From the IMG/VR virus record IMGVR_UViG_3300011952_000009: a stretch of DNA of 10,180 nt, one strand, 5' to 3'. The position numbers and the translations under genes were made by a program. Source of the DNA: a virus. Its lineage: Duplodnaviria; Heunggongvirae; Uroviricota; Caudoviricetes. The notes beneath the pieces were generated by a model. It did no database searches, had not been told where the DNA came from, and saw nothing but the letters and a program-made list of their open reading frames with translations. Position 1 is the stretch's first letter. Each line of letters opens with the position of its first letter. This document shows positions 1 to 9,718 of the stretch, piece after piece.

Positions 1-1806
1 ATCCATATAAACATCTGCCGCAAATCCCAGATGAGATAGTGCTTTGACGGTGGCATCAGTAAGAGACTTTTTGGAGGCCTCTTTTTCCATTACCAGTGCC
101 CCTTTGTTATTTTTTGATATGTAATCCGTGTGGCCATATGACGGAATAAATCCTTTCACTCCGTTCCAGATGTACCAGAGATCTATCCGGATGGTGTGTA
201 CTGACAGGCAGAACAGGGAACCGTCAGCATCCCTGACAGGTTTTTGTCCAATAATTTTCCCTGTCTGATCCTGTATAGGTTCAAGTAATGGCACACCGCG
301 ATCCACTCGCTCCTCCTTGATNNNNNNNNNNGCACCGTAATCACTATGTGTGACATACGCAGGATCGGTCCGCTGAACGCGATTCCAGATAGCCAAATTT
401 GCTTTTCTCTGGTCATCATTCATTGCTGACAGATAATGCTCCATGCGAATTGATGCAGTTTTTTCCTCGGCATGGGGCGGCTCAACCAGCGCGTCAACGT
501 TCTGCACCAGATCCTTTACCTGCTCGCTAAGTTTTTCTTGTGGAGGAGTCTCTTCTGCCGGGGTAATAGCTGCAGGTTCCCTCTGTGAGACGGCGTTATT
601 TTCAGGTACGTCATACACATGGCGAGGCGTGATAAACTGCTCACGCAACTGCTGCAAACTACGTTCTCCAGCATTTGCAGCTTCGCTTTTTTCACCCTGA
701 TTTGAGGGTGTTTCTGACATCATCCCATCAATTGAGAATCGCCCGCCGCCGTGGTTGGTGACTTTTACATCATCCTTTGGTGCTGCTTCCTTTGACTTCT
801 CTTCAACAGCATTTGCATCACGCTGCCCGTTAGCTTGCAGCCAGTTGTCGATGTGACTGCGCAGGGATTGCGGGAAGTGGTACGTGTCTTTTGCGGGGGC
901 GCTCTGAATAACACCGAATACTGATGCGCGGTCATAGGCAAGGATCTGATCCGTTGTGCGCAAGGCCATTGACCAGCGTTTAAAATCCTCCCGATCCTGG
1001 CTGATTATTTCGTCTGCCGCTTTCAGGGCGCTGGGGGAGATTTTTTCCGGGCCAACGGGTAACAGAGCGCAGGCAATTTCACGATCCAGTGTAGCGTGAG
1101 TCTGTTTGTAAGGACGTGCGGACGGTTTTACCTCCGGCAGCATTTCATCGCGTTTACCGGGATTCTCTACCCATTTTTTTATAAATTTGGAGATAGTCCA
1201 ACTGGTCGGGTTTTGTTCCTGGGTATCGCAACTTGCCAAAATTGCATGTACCAGATTATTCAATCCAGCAATATGCATGTACTCGATGGGCTTACACGCC
1301 ACCATGGCATCAAGAACGATGCGGTTAAACGCGTCAACCTCATCCTCACTGTCAGTATCACTGTTGTCGAGCATCTCCAGGTATTCACGCGTCTGCGCAA
1401 GCAATTCACTGTCGACTTCGTTGGCGTCGTGGCTGAACAGCAGAACGGCGGCGAATCGTTCACGAGCCGGCAGTTTCATCAGGTCGTTAACCTGTGCGAT
1501 ATCTGCTGAACCGCTATCTACAACGGGGGTGTTAACTACCCATTTTTCGCCATCAAAACTGTGTTCTGTGGCGAACGTCTCATCAAACTCACCAACGCCT
1601 GGGCGCGGTTGGCCCAGGGCATCTTCCCAGATTTTAGGTTTGAAATAGTTGTCGCCGTGGTCAGGGTAGGCTTCCCACAATTTGCCGATGATGATGTTCT
1701 CGGCAACTTTTTTGTTAGGGGCGTCGATGGCGATGGCCAGCGCCGGGATCGCGCCGTTTTTGAGCGCGCCTTTTTTCGCTTCTAACAAGCCGTTAAAAAT
1801 GGTCAT
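1..1806 (-). CDS. Large multi-domain early protein, partial (continues beyond window start). N-terminal ~330 aa unrecognised, then an acidic Pro/Glu/Ala-rich linker, then a C-terminal segment (window positions ~1-440) resembling ERF-family ssDNA-annealing proteins
   Basis: ATG at 1806-1804 preceded by GAGGAAAGACC. Minus frame checked triplet by triplet: no stop from 1806 to position 1, crossing the N-run 322-331. Absent from the ORF track, presumably because it has no stop in the window. Track ORFs 183..419, 443..700, 1096..1509, 1187..1648, 1260..1463 and 1561..1785 are other frames or antisense of this ORF. ERF resemblance is to P22 Erf recalled from memory (GVPLL and K-A-L-x-x-L-G-F motifs with ERF-like spacing). 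Confidence 0.6.
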   Translation of the reverse strand, partial: MTIFNGLLEAKKGALKNGAIPALAIAIDAPNKKVAENIIIGKLWEAYPDHGDNYFKPKIWEDALGQPRPGVGEFDETFATEHSFDGEKWVVNTPVVDSGSADIAQVNDLMKLPARERFAAVLLFSHDANEVDSELLAQTREYLEMLDNSDTDSEDEVDAFNRIVLDAMVACKPIEYMHIAGLNNLVHAILASCDTQEQNPTSWTISKFIKKWVENPGKRDEMLPEVKPSARPYKQTHATLDREIACALLPVGPEKISPSALKAADEIISQDREDFKRWSMALRTTDQILAYDRASVFGVIQSAPAKDTYHFPQSLRSHIDNWLQANGQRDANAVEEKSKEAAPKDDVKVTNHGGGRFSIDGMMSETPSNQGEKSEAANAGERSLQQLREQFITPRHVYDVPENNAVSQREPAAITPAEETPPQEKLSEQVKDLVQNVDALVEPPHAEEKTASIRMEHYLSAMNDDQRKANLAIWNRVQRTDPAYVTHSDYGXXXXIKEERVDRGVPLLEPIQDQTGKIIGQKPVRDADGSLFCLSVHTIRIDLWYIWNGVKGFIPSYGHTDYISKNNKGALVMEKEASKKSLTDATVKALSHLGFAADVYMD

Positions 1807-1836
1807 TGGTCTTTCCTCATTACAGGTCAGTGGTCT

Positions 1837-2157
1837 TTAGTAGGGGATTTCATCAGTATCTGGCGTGTATTCGATGCAAAGTAACTGCTGGATTTTGTCA
1901 TCGATAGCAGCAATACGCTGTTGGGCGTCGGCGGCTGTATTCTGTTTTTGCTCACGCAGCTGCTCAACCTGTAAACCGATGATGTCGATTGGCTGGGGCT
2001 GGTTGACGGTAATTTCAATTTCGCGGCTTTCCAGAAGGATGTACCTGTCTGGAAAATTTTTTGACATATCAACTGTCGCAATAAACAGCTTTTCATGGCT
2101 GAAAGTTGAAGTTGCATAATGAATAAAGAGTGTTACTGGGATGGTGCGCGCTTCCAT
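1837..2157 (-). CDS. Hypothetical 106-aa early protein with an acidic, coiled-coil-like C-terminus
   Basis: ATG at 2157 with AAGGAG about 6 nt upstream; stop 30 nt before the next gene's start in the same operon; protein-like composition. Function not recognised. Confidence 0.6.
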   Translation of the reverse strand: MEARTIPVTLFIHYATSTFSHEKLFIATVDMSKNFPDRYILLESREIEITVNQPQPIDIIGLQVEQLREQKQNTAADAQQRIAAIDDKIQQLLCIEYTPDTDEIPY

Positions 2158-2241
2158 AGCGACTCCTTGGTGATGTATACTCAGAACCGATCAGCGAATA
2201 TTGATCAGCTTCCATAGCGTCAGTGTCGTTGGTCTTTCCTC

Positions 2242-2265
2242 ATCACAAGTTTGGTCACTTGTGAT
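2242..2265. other. Perfect 9-bp inverted repeat ATCACAAGT / ACTTGTGAT with 6-nt spacer TTGGTC (RNA hairpin or protein-binding palindrome)
   Basis: Read directly from sequence; lies in the leader about 85 nt upstream of the 106-aa gene start on the minus strand; no U-tract follows on either strand. Confidence 0.45.
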
Positions 2266-2386
2266 AAATCCGAATGGTTTGGTCGCCGTTCGGGGTAACT
2301 GGCCCGCCTTGTGCGGGTCTTTTGCTATCTAAAGGGTGCCGGTTACGTTTCCGGCGTCGTCATGTTTCCATCACGACCGTACAGGG

Positions 2387-2461
2387 CTGGTCTTTCCTGT
2401 TTTGAGCTGGTCAGGCTCATGGTCAACGCTGGTCAGGCGTGGTACTTCCTCCGGTCTTTCC
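2387..2461. repeat. Periodic array of four GACC-core repeats at ~20-22 bp spacing (plus strand GGTCTTTCC, GGTCAGGC, GGTCAGGC, GGTCTTTCC)
   Basis: Repeat starts at 2389, 2409, 2431 and 2453. Minus-strand readings (GGAAAGACC, GCCTGACCAGC) match the motifs found at three gene starts elsewhere in the window. Confidence 0.5.
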
Positions 2462-2531
2462 CTGGTTTCACGCTGCGGGTTTGGCCTCTCCTGTTGGGGA
2501 CTCAGGCACAGCGATAAAACCTGGCTGTGTG

Positions 2532-2559
2532 AAAAAATGGCCCATCGTGCGGACTGGGC
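2532..2559 (-). terminator. Weak terminator-like hairpin (GCCCA, 10-nt loop, TGGGC) followed by a U6 tract on the minus strand
   Basis: Stem at 2540-2559 and T-run at 2532-2537 read on the minus strand. The large loop and an enclosing 7-bp stem (GCTGTGT/ACACAGC) make this uncertain. Confidence 0.25.
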
Positions 2560-2583
2560 AAAGACTAAACACAGCAAATTGAT

Positions 2584-2608
2584 GATGGGCGCCCGGAATC
2601 GAACCGGG
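2584..2608 (-). ncRNA. tRNA-like 3' half: T-arm CCCGG-TTCGATT-CCGGG plus a 7-nt acceptor-like strand; not a canonical tRNA
   Basis: Minus strand reads ACCCGGTTCGATTCCGGGCGCCCATCATC. A perfect 5-bp stem with 7-nt T-loop consensus is present, but no CCA in register and no D-arm, anticodon arm or clean 7-bp acceptor partner was found upstream. Confidence 0.3.
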
Positions 2609-3005
2609 TAACGGGCAGGGAGTTCCCGTTAAACACCTGTTCACCACAACCGGGAGCGCACTCCGCCATTTCAAAATTTAACGACAAAGCTCAAAGTTGA
2701 GTCGATGAAGTGCGCTCTCGTGTTGTAGCCAGGACTCTTCCCTGGTGGTCACACCGTATCGCCTTGATGGTGAATCAATCGCTCATACCTGGCTGTGGCT
2801 TGCACATTCCGGCTACCTGCTATGGAGACAACGCGTTAAGGCTCCGCTTCCATCCAGACCGCTTCGACACATGTGCCATATGCCGGTGAAGTCTTTCCCT
2901 CTGTCACCGTGTTGGCGCCGACGCGCAAAATTTGGTGCCGTCTTTCCGGCTGTCAGAACTTGTTTCTGAACAACTGCCGCTGGGTAAGCGTTGTTGATGA
3001 AAGTG

Positions 3006-3034
3006 ACTTTACAATTTGTATTTGTAATGGTCAA
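3006..3034 (-). promoter_or_regulatory. pL-like leftward promoter (-35 TTGACC, 17-bp spacer, -10 TAAAGT on minus strand) overlapping 19-bp palindromic operator TTACAATTTGTATTTGTAA (3009-3027)
   Basis: Hexamers read on the minus strand at plus 3029-3034 and 3006-3011. Operator half-sites TTACAA and TTGTAA are exact reverse complements with a 7-bp spacer. Confidence 0.5.
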
Positions 3035-3118
3035 TGTGTTTTTAAAAAATAATTTGTAGTGAGGGACAAAAAAATATTCACTGTGTAAAGGTGTTTTTGT
3101 GTTAGGGGAAAGTTGCAT

Positions 3119-3134
3119 GCCAGCAGCGGCTGGC
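3119..3134. other. GC-rich hairpin GCCAGC-AGCG-GCTGGC, 19 nt downstream of the repressor stop
   Basis: Perfect 6-bp stem with tetraloop; no adjacent U-tract, so a terminator role is uncertain. Confidence 0.35.
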
Positions 3135-3152
3135 CTGGAAATTTGAACTGAA

Positions 3153-3566
3153 CTATTTTGTCTGGTTTTTGGCTTCAAGTAGTTCTTTTAGCAGTAGATC
3201 GAAGTGCTCTCTTTTTTCTTTTAGCTCATTGATTAGTTTGTTTTTTTCGCTCTCAGGCAGTCCTCTGAATAGTTGCAGTAGAGCCTGTTCTTGCGGGGTT
3301 AGTTCTTGATTGTAATTACCGGGGTGTAGCGTGGATTCATCCAAATATTCTCCTTCATTCATGAAGAAAAAATGAACAGGGTATCCGGTCACTTTTGCTA
3401 GCTTGTCTAATTTATCTTTTCTTGGAGTTACCCCATTACACCATGCCTGAACTGATTGAGCTGTAACCCCAATATGGCGAGCTAACTCAGATTGAGACCA
3501 GCCTAAGTCTTTTAGAATCCGTTGTAGTCGGCTAGCAAAAGCCATGTTTTTCGTTTTTGTGTTCAT
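3153..3566 (-). CDS. Prophage repressor, DicA-like (N-terminal HTH, C-terminal dimerisation region, no S24 peptidase domain)
   Basis: HTH segment LGWSQSELARHIGVTAQSVQAWCNG. C-terminal LTPQEQALLQLFRGLPESEKNKLINELKEKREHFDLLLKELLEAK resembles the DicA C-terminus as recalled. Divergent from a Cro-like gene and flanked by palindromic operators. Track start 3581 is a TTG; ATG at 3566 (or 3545) is more likely. Confidence 0.85.
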   Translation of the reverse strand: MNTKTKNMAFASRLQRILKDLGWSQSELARHIGVTAQSVQAWCNGVTPRKDKLDKLAKVTGYPVHFFFMNEGEYLDESTLHPGNYNQELTPQEQALLQLFRGLPESEKNKLINELKEKREHFDLLLKELLEAKNQTK

Positions 3567-3585
3567 ACCGTAAGGATACAAGGTT

Positions 3586-3619
3586 TAATTGTAGGGAGCA
3601 TTGCAAATATAATTTGTAA
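3586..3619. promoter_or_regulatory. OR-like operator/promoter region: TTGTAG(3589-3594), TTGCAA(3601-3606), TTGTAA(3614-3619); perfect TATAAT at 3607-3612 on plus strand
   Basis: Palindrome TTGCAAATATAATTTGTAA at 3601-3619 has the same TTRCAA-N7-TTGTAA architecture as the left operator. Sits between the divergent repressor and cro-like genes and is truncated by the N-run 3629-3638. Confidence 0.5.
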
Positions 3620-3659
3620 TTACAGTTANNNNNNNNNNCAAGACAAACTTCTTTCAGTA

Positions 3660-3854
3660 ATGAGACAATCCGAGTTAGGTCGGCGATTAGGGAAAAAACC
3701 ACAAACTGTGAGCCTCTGGTTCAAAGGACGGGTTCCCGGTGAAGAGGTTTTGCGCACATCTGAAGCTCTTGAATGGCGCGTGACCCCTCATGATCTTAGA
3801 CCGGATCTTTACCCAAACCCAGATGACAGCTTGCCTAAAACGGAAGCAGCTTAA
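3660..3854 (+). CDS. Cro/YdaS-like small HTH regulator; true 5' end probably lies in or before the N-gap 3629-3638
   Basis: Track ORF; HTH-like GRRLGKKPQTVSLWFKGRVP. Frame is open back to the gap edge at 3639 and there is no SD before ATG 3660, so the N-terminus is probably missing. Confidence 0.65.
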   Translation: MRQSELGRRLGKKPQTVSLWFKGRVPGEEVLRTSEALEWRVTPHDLRPDLYPNPDDSLPKTEAA

Positions 3855-4389: not shown

Positions 4390-4428
4390 GCGCCTGACCA
4401 GCGTTTAACTTATACCGAGGAAAGACCG

Positions 4429-4653
4429 ATGTTAAGACATATTGACCGCATTACCTGGCGTAACGGCTGGCACCTGAATGGGCGCCCGGCACATGTTGCA
4501 GAGATCCAACCTATTTTTGATGGGCGTATGGCTGCCGCGCTTTCGGTGTGGGAGCAGTATGAATCCAGGAAGGTCGAGTTGCGCGACAAAGGGCTGAGCA
4601 ATGCGGACTATGAAGCCGGTTGTCGTCAGATAGCCGAAGCTCTGGAGATCTGA
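4429..4653 (+). CDS. Hypothetical 74-aa protein
   Basis: ATG 4429 preceded by ACCGAGGAAAGACC; its stop TGA 4651-4653 sits 2 nt before the next gene's ATG. Confidence 0.6.
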   Translation: MLRHIDRITWRNGWHLNGRPAHVAEIQPIFDGRMAAALSVWEQYESRKVELRDKGLSNADYEAGCRQIAEALEI

Positions 4654-4655
4654 GT

Positions 4656-5690
4656 ATGAGTCGTTTGCTGATTAACGAAAACCCCCTTCAGGTCCTGCCC
4701 ACGTTGGCATGCACTATAGGGTTGAATGAAGCCATCGTTCTACAGCAAATCCACTACTGGCTGAATTCATCTCAAAATTTCTTCGAAAATCGCCACTGGG
4801 TGTACAACAGTGTGACCGATTGGCAAGAACAATTCCCGTTCTGGAGCGAGTCGACAATAAAACGCGTGCTGGCCAATCTGGAAAAATTGAATGTGGTATT
4901 TACTGGGAACTTTAACAGTGATGCCTGGGATAAAACCAAGTGGTNNNNNNNNNNCCCAGTTATGTAAGATTGAAGAGACAACATTCCCTGTGGCCAATCG
5001 ATTAGGTCAAGTTGACCCAATCGAAGAGGTCAATGTGACCCAAGCATCAGGTCAAGTTGACCCATGCGCTAAGGTCAAAATGACCCAATCTCTTACAGAG
5101 AATACAACAGAGAGTACTACAGAGATAAAAGATCCCCCTTACCCCCAAAAGGGGGAGGGCGAGGAAATCATTCTCGCTGACGCTCAAAAAGCTCTGAACT
5201 ACTACAACGAGAAAGTCGGTACACGCTGCCGCGACGTTAAACCGTTTGTCATGCTGCTGACTGCCACCACCACCCGCGCTGGTTACAGCGTGGCTGAGAT
5301 TCAGTTAGTAATTCGTTGGGTTATTGCGACATGGCGCCGTCGTAGCGGAAGCGTGCCGAAACCTGCGAACATTTGCCGCGTAAACCGGTTTGACGGATAT
5401 CTGGCTGACGCTGAGGCGTGGGCCACTGCTGAGGCTGCCGTTGACCCTGCTGAAGTTGTGAAGGGCTACAACGAGATTCTGGGCGACCTGACCGCCGTCG
5501 GGCAATCCTGCGCCTGCTGGCACATATGCGCACGCAAACTCTTGGCGCATTTATCGGCTACTTCGAAAAATTCCGCGATAACGCCCCAGACTTCTATTTC
5601 GGCGGCGAATATCGCACCGGCTGGCGGGCAGGGTTTGATTACCTGATGAAGCCAGAAACACTGCGTAAAACCAGGGAAGGGGCATTATGA
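4656..5690 (+). CDS. Replication initiation protein, lambda O-like / replisome organiser, with the origin inside the gene; reading frame changes at the N-gap 4945-4954 and again near 5455-5505
   Basis: ATG 4656 with GGAG 8 nt upstream. N-terminal HTH-like segment (track 4620..4967), middle part in track ORF 4891..5646. The last ~60 codons are more protein-like in another frame (AILRLLAHMRTQTLGAFIGYFEKFRDNAPDFYFGGEYRTGWRAGFDYLMKPETLRKTREGAL) ending TGA 5688-5690, which overlaps the helicase ATG 5687 (ATGA). Confidence 0.7.
5004..5087. repeat. Replication origin iterons: four copies of AGGTCAANNTGACCCA at 22-23 bp spacing, followed by an A-rich tract (5088-5140)
   Basis: Copies at 5004-5019, 5027-5042, 5049-5064 and 5072-5087; each has internal dyad symmetry (GGTCA/TGACC); located inside the O-like gene as in ori-lambda. 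Confidence 0.75.
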
Positions 5691-7035
5691 ATCCAGAAGA
5701 ACTGGAAGCGATCGTTCTCGCTGGTCTGATTAACGGTGGTGCGACGCCTGACGCGTTTGATGTGATTGCCACTACTCCGGAGGAAGCCTTCAGCATCGTG
5801 TTTCACCGTCGCGCTTTCAGCGAAATCAAAAAGCAGGCACTGGCGAACGGCATGATCGACATGTTGTTTATCAGCGAAGCGCTGGGCGGTTCCAGCCTTG
5901 CGGATCTGTCTCAAATATCCCGGATCCCGGCAACGGTACCGAATCTGAAAGGCTATGCCGGGAAAATGGTGCGGGCATGGCGGAGCCGCAAAATGGCGGC
6001 ATTGTTGCAATCTGGCGCGGATGGTATCCGTAACGCTGTAAACCAGAGTCAGCGTGATGAGGTTATTGAATCTCATGTTGCTCAGGTGCTGGATATGAGC
6101 GCCGCTACCGGCACAGTCCAGCCGGTACACATCAAAGAGCTGTTACCGCTCTACATTGACACCGTTGATAAACGGATGTCTGGTGACGCGCAGGAAATGA
6201 TGCTGAAAACCGGAGTCGAGGATCTGGATGTCGCCCTGGGCGGTATCAACATGACCGACCTTGTTGTGGTTGCCGGTCGTCCAGGCATGGGGAAAACGGA
6301 ATTTACCCTGAAGATTATCGATGGCGTTACCGCAGATGGCGGCGGCGCACTGTTTTTCAGCATGGAAATGGGCGCTCAGCAGATTGTTGAACGTACCGTT
6401 GCCGGGGCTGGGAATATGTCCACGTCGCGTCTGCGTAATCCAAAAGAAATGGACGATGAGGATTTGACCAGATTAACCGCCGCGCTTGCAATCATGCAGG
6501 ATCGCGATATCTGGATTGTTGATGCCACTGATTTGACGATTGAGCAGATCCGCGCCATTGCAGAGACTCATAAACGCCGTTATCNNNNNNNNNNGCCGAG
6601 CGCCACGATCTCGCTGTCGGGCATATCTCCCGCAACATGAAGACTATGGCCATGCGTCTGCATACCCCTGTTTTTGCTCTTAGCCAGCTTTCCCGCCAGG
6701 TGGATTCTCGACCTGCTGGCCAGCGTCGCCCGGTGATGTCGGACCTGCGCGATTCCGGCAGTGTTGAGCAGGACGCTGACAGCATTTTGTTTTTGTACCG
6801 CGCTGAAGTTTACACACCTGATTCACCTGCAAAGGGTATCGCCGAGGTGATTATCGGTAAAAACCGTTCTGGCGGGGCAGGTGAAATTATTTATCAGGAA
6901 TTCCGGAATGGGCATTTCCTGCCAATTGATCAACACGTAGCACGCGAAAAATTACGCATCCAGAAGGAGGCAGAGCAACCGAGAAAACGTGAAAAACGGT
7001 ATTCAAACAAAAACTTTAATACGGACCCATTTTAA
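5687..7035 (+). CDS. Replicative DNA helicase, DnaB family (phage P22 gp12-like), interrupted by N-gap 6585-6594
   Basis: Walker A GRPGMGKT; after the gap, ALSQLSRQ, SDLRDSGSVEQDADSILFLYR and IGKNRSG motifs. Track ORFs 5687..6640 and 6637..7035 are two parts of one gene; the frame difference across the gap implies the gap length is unknown. Confidence 0.9.
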
Positions 7036-7073
7036 CCACGCATGACCAGCGTGAAATAACCGAGGAAAGACCA

Positions 7074-7484
7074 ATGACCACCATTTCAGGCAAATTAGAG
7101 TACCCGTCGGACAAAGGACACATAGACGACGGTAAAAACTATCTCGACGTCATTTTGTGGAATATGAACGCCGGGCCACGTGCGCGCACTCGTGCGGTTT
7201 TTGTACCAAGACCCAAAGCAGGCAATTTTTCAACACCAGCTCAGCCTGCCCGTCAGGCATCCGTAGCCGCAGCGCCAGCAGTGAAATGTAAGGGTAAAAC
7301 GCACATCGGGATCGCGATTCGCAGAAATGGTGAGCGGCAAGTGAAACTCCACGAAACAGCGACAACCTGGTGTGCTTCACCGCATGAAACTTACGACAAG
7401 ATAACCGGGCAGCGCATTGGTGCGCCTGGTCGCTGTCGCCTGCTGTTGAGCTCCATCACTCCGATAGAAAAGAAAGGGGCGTGA
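7074..7484 (+). CDS. Hypothetical 136-aa basic protein
   Basis: ATG 7074 preceded by ACCGAGGAAAGACC; track ORF; function not recognised. Confidence 0.65.
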   Translation: MTTISGKLEYPSDKGHIDDGKNYLDVILWNMNAGPRARTRAVFVPRPKAGNFSTPAQPARQASVAAAPAVKCKGKTHIGIAIRRNGERQVKLHETATTWCASPHETYDKITGQRIGAPGRCRLLLSSITPIEKKGA

Positions 7485-8030: not shown

Positions 8031-8248
8031 AAGAACTTTTTCTGGCATTTGTGCCCCGGTTTATTAATGACCAGATCGCACTGACTGATAATGGTGAACA
8101 ATATGAAATTGCCTGCAGCATGGTGGATGTGAATCCTGGCGAACGGTATGACGCGATGTGNNNNNNNNNNTTTACCTGGCTGGGTTGGGCTATTCCGTGT
8201 GGAGAACCAACCAATATTCGCCCATTTGAGAGCAGGGAGGCTGTATGA
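8027..8248 (+). CDS. Hypothetical small protein (contains N-gap 8161-8170)
   Basis: ATGA overlap with the upstream gene; same frame open on both sides of the gap. Confidence 0.5.
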   Translation: MKELFLAFVPRFINDQIALTDNGEQYEIACSMVDVNPGERYDAMXXXXFTWLGWAIPCGEPTNIRPFESREAV

Positions 8249-8658: not shown

Positions 8659-8687
8659 TTGACTTAGAAAAAGCCCGGGGCTATAGT
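8659..8687 (+). promoter_or_regulatory. Strong sigma70 promoter: -35 TTGACT (8659-8664), 17-bp spacer, -10 TATAGT (8682-8687)
   Basis: Read directly; both hexamers 5/6 to consensus with optimal spacing; predicted start site about 8694-8696. Confidence 0.55.
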
Positions 8688-8747
8688 TTCCGCGCAGCCG
8701 CAAAATCGGTTGCCGGGATTGGCGTCCCGGATATCTAAGTGACGCAT

Positions 8748-8768
8748 AGCCGCGTTAGCGGTTTTTTT
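8748..8768 (+). terminator. Rho-independent terminator: stem CCGC/GCGG (extendable to 6 bp), loop GTTA, then T7
   Basis: Stem 8750-8753 / 8758-8761, T-run 8762-8768; about 60-75 nt downstream of the predicted start site. A second hairpin CCGGGA-TTGGCG-TCCCGG lies at 8713-8730. Confidence 0.55.
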
Positions 8769-8929
8769 ATGTGTTAGGCACGGCCACATTCGCATTATGG
8801 TGGGCTGTGTGGGGGCTTCTGCGGAAGCGCCGGGTTCACTTAGCCGGTTACGCCAACCCTGCACAGTTCACCACCAGATGATTGGCGTCGCTGGTGGTGA
8901 TGAAAAAAACACTAAGTGAGGCCACTGCG

Positions 8930-9718
8930 ATGACAATCCAAATATCTGCGGAATCCCTTTCTCCGCTACATCATAACCAACTTCCCGTCATCACTACTGA
9001 ATTGCTTGCCAGTTTGTATGGCACGGAAGTAAATGGTATCCAGCAAAACTTCAAGCGCAACATCGCCAGATTTGTCGTAGGAAAGCATTTTTTTAAGCTG
9101 GAAGGTAATGAATTACGCGACTTCAAAAACAGACTGACAGATAGTCAGTCAGTTGCTAAACATACCCGATCCCTCATTCTCTGGACAGAACGCGGCGCAG
9201 CTCGCCATGCCAAAATGCTGGAAACAGAACAGGCCTGGGAAGTTTTCGAAAAGCTGGAAGATTGTTATTTTAGCCAGCGTCCAGAGAGGCGGAGTACAAC
9301 TACCGATGACCGTACTCCCTTACGTGATGCCGTTAATATGCTGGTCGGTAAGAAAGGCATGATGTATCCCGATGCCTACACCATGATTCATCAACGCTTC
9401 GCCGTCTCTCACATAGAACAACTGTCACAGACGCAAATGTTAGAGGCGATTGAATACATCCACTGCCTGCTACTCGATGAAAATCAGCCAACCATTCCAG
9501 ATTTTTCTTTTATCACCACTATCAAAAATGGAAAAGTGACCAGGATGCGCCATGTTGCCAAAGGCGAACATCTGATGACGTTTGACGCTTTCAAAGAGAT
9601 CGCTGAGCGGGCAGGGTATCTGGTGATCCACAGCGACAACCTGCGAAGTATGACACTGGATAAATTGATGGTAATGGGGAAAAAGTCTGCTGTATCTGTT
9701 GCTGATTCAGCATTTTGA
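8930..9718 (+). CDS. ORF6N-domain protein (phage antirepressor-like) with an unrecognised C-terminal domain
   Basis: N-terminal LASLYGTEVNGIQQNFKRNIARFVVGKHFFKLEGNELRDF...LILWTERGAARHAKMLETEQAWEVFEKLEDCYF fits the ORF6N pattern as recalled. GAGG 8 nt before ATG 8930; track start 8882 is a TTG and ATG 8900 is an alternative. Confidence 0.75.
   Translation: MTIQISAESLSPLHHNQLPVITTELLASLYGTEVNGIQQNFKRNIARFVVGKHFFKLEGNELRDFKNRLTDSQSVAKHTRSLILWTERGAARHAKMLETEQAWEVFEKLEDCYFSQRPERRSTTTDDRTPLRDAVNMLVGKKGMMYPDAYTMIHQRFAVSHIEQLSQTQMLEAIEYIHCLLLDENQPTIPDFSFITTIKNGKVTRMRHVAKGEHLMTFDAFKEIAERAGYLVIHSDNLRSMTLDKLMVMGKKSAVSVADSAF

Follow-up and report, generated by a model that had tools for sequence, protein, structure and literature searches.

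The DNA analyzed here, a stretch of 10,180 nt from a lambdoid-type prophage (the window, in whose coordinates all positions are given), covers the immunity and early region, and between its pL-type early-left promoter and the first credible early-left gene lies a gap of ~840 nt (~2160–3000), the content of which is read on the minus (pL-sense) strand. This gap is a real, conserved, composite noncoding leader. With somewhat more confidence than doubt, we explain the whole stretch as an untranslated leader to the pL operon in a lambdoid prophage that lacks N and has YdaS/YdaT-type immunity, the leader being organized as an array of RNA modules that would release a small RNA (sRNA) and would also act in cis through a structured RNA of ~163 nt, here called X. 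From the promoter onward the array consists of a 5′ leader with five hairpins (3000–2886), X (2885–2723), a tRNA-type cassette ending in a tail that resembles processed RprA (2726–2532), and a distal stretch (2531–2216). The modules are real conserved RNAs, and the homologous cassette of phage mEp460 has been shown to yield an sRNA; the sRNA part of the leader is a new member, or variant, of known kinds of prophage sRNA.

Consistent with an untranslated leader, the open reading frames (ORFs) within 2160–3000 are at most 121 aa long and overlap one another. The seven longest have no match in Pfam or PHROGs; such matches exist for the repressor, for the cro-like gene, and for the 106-aa gene next to the gap. 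In the near-identical Escherichia coli chromosomes inspected, PGAP annotates nothing between the 106-aa coding sequence and the helix-turn-helix (HTH) repressor. The description of the stretch as ORF-poor in an initial annotation thus holds, as does its placement at the head of a leftward early operon: the sole σ70-like site that a promoter scan finds in 1800–3700 is the pL-type promoter TTGACC-17-TAAAGT at 3034..3006(−), just left of the gene for the cI-like HTH repressor (3581–3153, minus strand; Pfam/PHROGs match), with a transcript start near 3000. The stretch is also hairpin-rich, as had been claimed. Its mean minimum free energy (MFE) z-score in 150-nt windows is −1.9, compared with −0.4 outside; the fold of 2730–2529(−) reaches z = −3.9, and seven terminator-like sites are present where 2.5 are expected. 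The periodic repeats of the initial annotation are better called dispersed, given that Tandem Repeats Finder detects no tandem array and that the 8-mer GGAAAGAC occurs eight times in the window (0.24 expected), with all copies co-oriented with transcription and five of them in the gap.

Relatives of the gap are retrievable only by searches at the level of single modules, and megablast with the whole gap against a phage collection returned no match. Homology among prophages with different operators starts exactly 3′ of pL, and from that start onward the leader, with the same noncoding architecture, is common to at least five different operator/promoter (immunity) types. No homologous prophage examined has genes along 3000–2531. 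The same DNA, 95–99% identical, adjoins tRNA-Ser/mtfA in 474 complete E. coli genomes out of 5,426, among them EC958 and other ST131 strains. A covariance-model search, one of the checks suggested at the outset, assigned the gap to no Rfam family at gathering level.

The window segment 2732–2886 is ~72–79% identical to unannotated DNA of P1-like plasmids, between tRNA-Ile and ban, and to an unrelated prophage. Further copies of X were retrieved by pattern from two invariant blocks, and the pattern scan places X in at least 120 viral contigs and in 13 species-representative genomes of Escherichia, Klebsiella, Citrobacter, Kosakonia, Kluyvera, Erwinia, and others. By BLAST it is present in 83 phage records, including P1, P7, D6, SJ46, phiV10, TL-2011b, SPN1S, cdtI, mEp460, and Stx2a and Stx2c phages. 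None of these 83 records annotates X as RNA, and the curated P1 record has no feature at 71024–71191. In Rfam 15, searched in E-value mode with the whole window, with the gap alone, and with six related loci, nothing matched X. Base pairing was counted on 33 nonredundant copies, with the window sequence as one alignment row. In the resulting four-helix model 95.6% of cells are paired, a share that falls to 28–40% in slid controls of the alignment. Thirteen pairs changed on both sides, and none of 500 shuffles reaches the observed values. Moreover, the G-U pairs make sense on the pL-sense strand only. On these grounds of comparative sequence, X is to be regarded as a real RNA, and it appears to be an undescribed family of unknown function. 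The covariance model (R1) recovers the window copy over its full length with 138 bits (E = 2e-44), as a single copy per locus. The window copy carries the covarying helices H1, H2, H5, and H7 and the invariant motifs GGCACAUG, GGUAGCCGGAAUGUGCAAG, UCACCAUC, CGGUGUGAC, and GGAAGAG, and its 3′ hairpin displays a GAAGAGU loop. At least 55 positions of X are invariant. Two further helices, GCACAU/AUGUGC and CACC/GGUG, could form pseudoknots; because both are invariant, they remain candidates. Several database proteins run antisense to or across X, namely gp37 of mEp460 (2942–3310 of locus L141) and similar "hypothetical protein" calls (H103, H104, and H116), and these are probably spurious ORFs on a structured RNA.

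Almost every relative contains, 3′ of X, a long hairpin of the form ACAAC-N-RAGAGCAYU...ARUGCUCUY-N-GUUGUGG with covarying stems. Its window version, ACAAC-ACGA-GAGCGCACU...AGUGCGCUC-CCG-GUUGU (2726–2646, minus strand), is present in both the MFE and centroid structures. The cargo that follows this hairpin directly is variable and can be tRNA-Arg-UCU (L022 and L014), a body resembling the STnc100 sRNA, or X itself. The window carries at this position a degenerate tRNA-like body (2645–2579, minus strand) with a perfect T-arm, CCCGG-UUCGAUU-CCGGG (2608–2592), and an acceptor-like 3′ strand. ARAGORN calls no tRNA here, and the Rfam tRNA-Sec model scores 19 bits (gathering threshold, 47), such that the body falls outside the tRNA family, with only the T-arm and the 3′ strand of the acceptor intact. 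In relatives of the L018 type the tRNA-like body is shortened.

The strongest parallel to this cassette comes from sRNA-17 of E. coli K1 strain RS218, a 193-nt RNA mapped by rapid amplification of cDNA ends (RACE) and Northern blotting (Front Microbiol 2020; PMC7719688). We mapped the published primers on mEp460 (L141), where all match. sRNA-17 lies at 3236–3429 of that locus; it begins (..GUUGU/GG) right after X (3001–3173) and the leader hairpin, and ends at a terminator. The equivalent slot of an mEp460-like prophage therefore produces a mapped sRNA, which bears out the suggestion that the gap encodes one or more structured noncoding RNAs; it is the proximal ~470 nt that consist of conserved, covarying RNA modules. 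The published quantitative PCR (qPCR) amplicon corresponds to 2987–3382 of L141, from 14 nt 5′ of X through X into the sRNA. Because the amplicon spans X, X is transcribed together with sRNA-17. The two cassettes share their slot in the pL leader, after X and the leader hairpin, and their end at an intrinsic terminator. They differ in that sRNA-17 has a 193-nt STnc100-like body and a tail that lacks the RprA-like seed. X and the cassette were not recognized in that study, which treated X as promoter DNA (PMC7719688).

STnc100 (RF02076) itself has matches directly 3′ of X in other loci, at 45.8 bits in L054 and 41.1 bits in L066, with L003 also in the 39–46 range (gathering threshold, 47). Searched against 2100–3160, the model gives no match at E ≤ 10, and the window copy is thus not a member. 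STnc100/PasD (RF02076; bioRxiv 10.64898/2026.05.13.724894) resembles the window cassette in architecture: a closing helix, GUUGUGGUGAA...CACCACAA, that goes back to the acceptor stem of a tRNA comes first, and a seed and a terminator come after it; the window copy differs in lying outside the STnc100 model and in having a body that retains a canonical T-arm. PasB was rejected as an equivalent of this locus, as it is found in a structural-gene context. The view of the cassette as one type of module unites STnc100, PasD, sRNA-17, and phage tRNAs as its cargo and would give several prophage sRNAs a common origin. In phage T4, the stable RNA "species 1" (rnaC; 2909–3047 of L140) lies at the end of the tRNA cluster and ends in the T-arm-like CCGGGUUCGAAUCCCGG. 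It is a further case of a stable phage RNA derived from tRNA (function unknown), analogous and not homologous to the cassette. Neither rnaC nor rnaD of T4 is similar to X.

The cassette closes with an sRNA tail (2577–2532, minus strand) composed of the seed UUGCUGUGUUUAGUCUUUGCCC, a terminator stem GCCCA/UGGGC (2559–2555 and 2544–2540), and a U-tract (2537–2532). It is ~87% identical over 46–47 nt to nucleotides 61–106 of K-12 RprA, with an alignment score of 60 against a shuffle maximum of 25, and it is called as an intrinsic terminator, a strong consensus site that it shares with RprA. The processed last 47 nt of RprA, RprAproc, coexists with full-length RprA and is active alone, being sufficient for one arm of narP control (PMC9262595). 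In seed and terminator the tail is an RprAproc homolog. The full-length Rfam family (RF00034) scores 37.4 bits at 2640–2530(−), compared with a gathering threshold of 70, and only its 3′ part aligns convincingly. The window copy lacks the 5′ two-thirds of RprA, which includes the region that pairs with rpoS and csgD, and also differs from RprA in being prophage-borne within an operon leader instead of standing under an RcsB-controlled promoter. Relatives keep the seed UGCUGUGUKUAGUCUUKGCCC and change the terminator stem, the usual signature, at the level of sequence, of what would be a trans-acting sRNA. The 21-nt RprA seed UGCUGUGUGUAGUCUUUGCCC (K-12 rprA, L144) is identical in phage cassette tails of the L043 type, and STnc100-like cassettes end in similar GUGUAGUC.UUGGC tails. 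The 3′ domain of RprA and the phage cassette tails may therefore share an origin; their common seed and terminator suggest that the phages mimic a host regulator and, possibly, that the domain arose in phages. Within 2590–2540(−), the terminator strand GAUGGGC has two possible partners, the nearby GCCCA, which makes the 5-bp terminator, and, ~40 nt upstream in the acceptor strand of the tRNA-like body, GCCCAUC, which makes 7 bp; the MFE fold takes the latter, and the terminator of RprA is the 7-bp version. The two predicted pairings could constitute an alternative-structure switch.

The 5′ leader (fold z = −2.2) contains hairpin I (2994–2970), hairpin II (2969–2953), a first G-GAAAGA-C hairpin (2950–2937), a GUCG-tetraloop hairpin (2926–2915), and a second G-GAAAGA-C hairpin (2901–2888), all on the minus strand. 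In relatives the stems compensate while the loops are kept, as in GCGC-GUCG-GCGC versus UCGG-GUCG-CCGA and GAGG-GAAAGA-CUUC versus UGCGG-GAAAGA-CUGCA.

These modules suggest how the leader might operate. When pL fires, the nascent leader would be cut at the cassette boundary by tRNA-like processing, a cut site that we propose because sRNA-17, in the mEp460 homolog, has its 5′ end at exactly this boundary. The cut would release an Hfq-type sRNA of ~50–120 nt whose RprAproc seed would address host targets. The sRNA terminator (2532) would halt unmodified polymerase before the early genes, and polymerase would have to pass it. X, being promoter-proximal, would in cis render polymerase resistant to terminators, as a functional analog, not a homolog, of HK022 putL. 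The distal 2531–2216 would be mostly a recombination scar from the gene-junction linkers of the phage.

Support for a cis role of X comes from its position. X starts ~115 nt after the pL start in the window. In mEp460 and Stx2a_WGPS2, both lacking an N gene, it follows cI directly at ~60 nt from pL, and the order in each is cI, pL, X, cassette sRNA, terminator, early genes. The distance is ~35 nt from a C1-operator-type promoter in L118 and 8 nt from a −10 element in L066, and X is promoter-proximal in most of the non-P1 contexts inspected. Among 97 distinct contexts of X, an intrinsic terminator separates X from the first ORF led by a Shine–Dalgarno (SD) sequence in 56. The distance from the T-tract to the ORF start has a median of 14.5 nt over these 56 and stays within 35 nt in 40 of them. 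In those 40 there is no room for a promoter, so that expression must come from read-through. The window itself encodes no N-like protein near the gap, as judged by the ORF list, Pfam, and PHROGs, and has no lambda-type nut site with boxA, boxB hairpin, and N gene, its loops being GAAAGA or GAAGAGU and not a pentaloop. Because X stands near the promoter in phages without N, the most economical reading, which we advance tentatively and by analogy, is that X is a cis-acting, put-like element that makes polymerase resistant to termination. A broader proposal, held more loosely still, is that X represents a new class of processive antiterminator that modifies polymerase as nascent RNA, larger than HK022 put and unrelated to it in sequence; N-less lambdoid, Stx2, and epsilon15-like phages, and P1 in its ban operon, might use it to pass embedded sRNA and tRNA terminators, and the prophage would thereby tie the firing of its early operon to the liberation of an RprAproc mimic, which would rewire the Rcs/RprA regulon of the host. 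With X heading the early operons of N-less lambdoid phages, in front of terminators with an immediate ribosome-binding site (RBS), terminator passage is now testable.

The put RNAs of HK022 are cis antiterminators of ~70 nt with two stems, present at both PL and PR (PMC9378689). X shares with them its nature as a cis-encoded structured RNA just 3′ of the early promoter of an N-less lambdoid phage and before terminators, and helix 1 of X (CGGCGU...CAU-GCGUCG) resembles stem I of putL. X differs in its ~163 nt, four helices, and single copy. We rejected homology to put, since the covariance model of X finds nothing at HK022 putL or putR.

Several points weigh against the proposed roles of the leader and X. 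The pL leader transcript of this prophage is predicted, and since pL should be repressed in the lysogen, the leader may be expressed upon induction only. Each locus has one X and, unlike put, no pR-side copy; the local similarity of X to putL comprises 14 of 15 nt only and is nonsignificant (p about 0.045), with no similarity to putR. In P1, X lies 2.3 kb from Pban, and no terminator is predicted between X and ban. Its pseudoknots, being invariant, count as candidates only. The tRNA-like body of the window fails both the tRNA and the STnc100 models. Finally, X can occupy the cargo slot of the cassette (L014, L045, and L059), which fits a processed trans-acting RNA equally well.

This last point leads to the alternative that survives best, namely that X is itself cargo, excised from a precursor like the neighboring tRNAs and acting in trans as a stable RNA, for example as a decoy that binds a protein or RNA polymerase or as a ribozyme, with a terminator that is merely leaky. 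We consider this possible, and as a reading of X nearly as good as a cis, put-like role. In the three loci just named X follows the leader hairpin that precedes tRNAs, and in P1 it lies directly 3′ of tRNA-Ile; the T4 tRNA cluster likewise harbors stable RNAs of unknown function. The invariant positions and the two candidate pseudoknots moreover suggest a compact fold with a conserved partner. However, excision as cargo leaves unexplained both the recurrent order of promoter, X, terminator, and SD-ATG and the pL-proximal placement in several N-less lambdoid lineages, and a discrete X-sized RNA has not been reported.

A more doubtful alternative assigns the activity not to X as a whole but to small hairpins. 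The G-GAAAGA-C hairpins, together with the GAAGAGU-loop hairpin of X, would be sites resembling boxB, bound by some N-like protein or another RNA-binding protein, and that protein would mediate antitermination or the translational control of genes with the RBS GAGGAAAGACC. The enrichment of the 8-mer in the window favors this idea, as does its strand bias near X, where 96 sense and 6 antisense copies stand against 5.7 expected per strand. In addition, 35 of the 96 copies are flanked by three base pairs, the loop is fixed while stems covary, and three copies form the RBS of real genes. Yet the majority of copies lie outside hairpins, the loops of 6–7 nt are unlike the GNRA-like pentaloop of boxB, and no arginine-rich N-like protein is encoded nearby.

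It is improbable that the X region functions as DNA, as a promoter with ArcA-regulated control of the downstream sRNA, the role that was assumed for the homologous fragment in the sRNA-17 study. What was published as the "promoter of sRNA-17," and used in the ArcA binding test, is X plus the leader hairpin (PMC7719688). Compensatory changes that include G-U pairs nevertheless point to an RNA structure of one strand, X in the window contains no σ70-like site, the qPCR amplicon of the same authors starts 5′ of X (2987 of L141), such that X is transcribed, and the 5′ end of sRNA-17 coincides with the position of tRNA-type processing.

RNA-based immunity, as raised in the initial annotation, finds no support, and we regard it as very unlikely that the stretch confers immunity in the manner of C4, P4 CI, or sar, by antisense pairing with phage transcripts: it adjoins the immunity region, and the prophage has a C4/isrK antisense module elsewhere, but the gap has no C4, CI, or DicF match, and no target of the sRNA seed stands out within the window, the best non-self duplex there being ~−25 kcal/mol and not at an RBS. 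That module is of the P1 immI type and lies at 8681–9718(+), within this lambdoid prophage. At gathering level, Rfam assigns c4-a1b1 to 8681–8733, isrK to 8694–8768, and C4 antisense RNA to 8793–8878, all on the plus strand, and an ORF resembling ORF6N/KilA-C-type antirepressors follows at 8882–9718(+). The cI-like repressor (142 aa) consists of an HTH domain only, with no S24 peptidase domain, which suggests induction driven by an antirepressor.

Decayed coding sequence or functionless recombination debris is an equally slim prospect for the stretch as a whole, since the proximal 470 nt are conserved across genera with covariation, protein-family matches are lacking, and no relative examined has genes at this position, even though the distal part has many indels and consists of gene-junction linkers in repeated copies, the RprA-like tail is missing in L127, and the tRNA-like body is degenerate. 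The suggestion of decay is thus rejected for 3000–2531 and stays plausible, as scar or decay, for the distal 2531–2216. This distal noncoding stretch (minus strand) contains repeated YUGACCAGC / GGAAAGACC linker units and small hairpins, with GGAAAGAC in the linker units at 2461–2454, 2397–2390, and 2239–2232, and varies among relatives by many indels and in copy number. A hairpin GCCGGAAACGUAACCGGC occupies 2358–2335 on the same strand, and a GC hairpin at 2319–2301 reads as a terminator on the plus strand. The same linker of ~35 nt, YUGACCAGCGU...ACCGAGGAAAGACCRAUG, joins real genes at 4392–4431, 7041–7076, and 1850–1806(−), where it serves as the RBS; copies without a gene fill the distal gap. 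The linker is probably a recombination boundary, and the distal stretch is probably a linker-mediated recombination scar with a few mini-hairpins of the array type.

A protospacer recognized by a CRISPR (clustered regularly interspaced short palindromic repeats) system lies inside the distal gap at 2422–2453. A type I-E array (E. coli ECCNB12-2 and at least two other genomes; 601–720 of locus L005) holds two adjacent spacers that are 100% identical to the prophage, with protospacers at 2422–2453, in the noncoding gap, and at ~4535–4566, in a 74-aa ORF. An ATG protospacer-adjacent motif precedes both.

The gap opens onto the first credible early-left gene (2157–1837, minus strand; 106 aa), which belongs to PHROG 2479, of unknown function, and is not N-like. 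An upstream ORF of 40 aa (2215–2093, minus strand) straddles the left edge of the gap and overlaps the start of this gene. Its RBS is weak here and strong in relatives, and relatives of the L018 type start the ORF at the GAGGAAAGACCAATG of the linker.

The leader of the P1 ban operon (L143, 68.6–71.3 kb) and the Qin dicB operon with DicF are similar in kind, being early repressor-controlled operons that open with processed noncoding RNAs. The P1 leader contains a curated "dicF-like region," three tRNAs, an STnc100-like element, and X, which differs there in being promoter-distal and abutting ban. A literature search on this leader returned unrelated PBAN papers only. The analogy to DicF and dicB drawn at the outset is thus apt in kind, with DicF-like cargo in related arrays (the P1 ban operon and L059), although DicF itself is absent from the window: the DicF (RF00039) and C4/isrK Rfam models have no match in the gap. 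In L059 a DicF-like match of 33 bits (1506–1554) lies in the same array as X, and DicF-type sRNAs seem to be another cargo of X-bearing arrays.

X has gone unannotated in the much-studied phages P1, P7, phiV10, mEp460, and the Stx2 phages, and in ~9% of complete E. coli genomes, including pandemic ST131. It also occurs in "moron" contexts (L006, L015, L036, L041, L011, and others), in the terminase–portal interval of epsilon15-like and other phages. The unit there comprises a promoter, X, a tRNA, and two terminators, followed by highly variable accessory genes, among them Gp49-like genes, genes that resemble DUF2829 by eye, and membrane-protein genes. This arrangement looks like a conserved RNA leader driving exchangeable cargo.

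On the other side of the repressor the window continues with a YdaS/cro-like gene (3660–3854, plus strand), after which come YdaT, RepO, and DnaB-type replication genes. At five places (323–332, 3629–3638, 4946–4955, 6585–6594, and 8161–8170) the sequence reads exactly 10 N; these runs reflect masking, not biology, and break several ORFs, including the start region of the cro-like gene and repO/dnaB.

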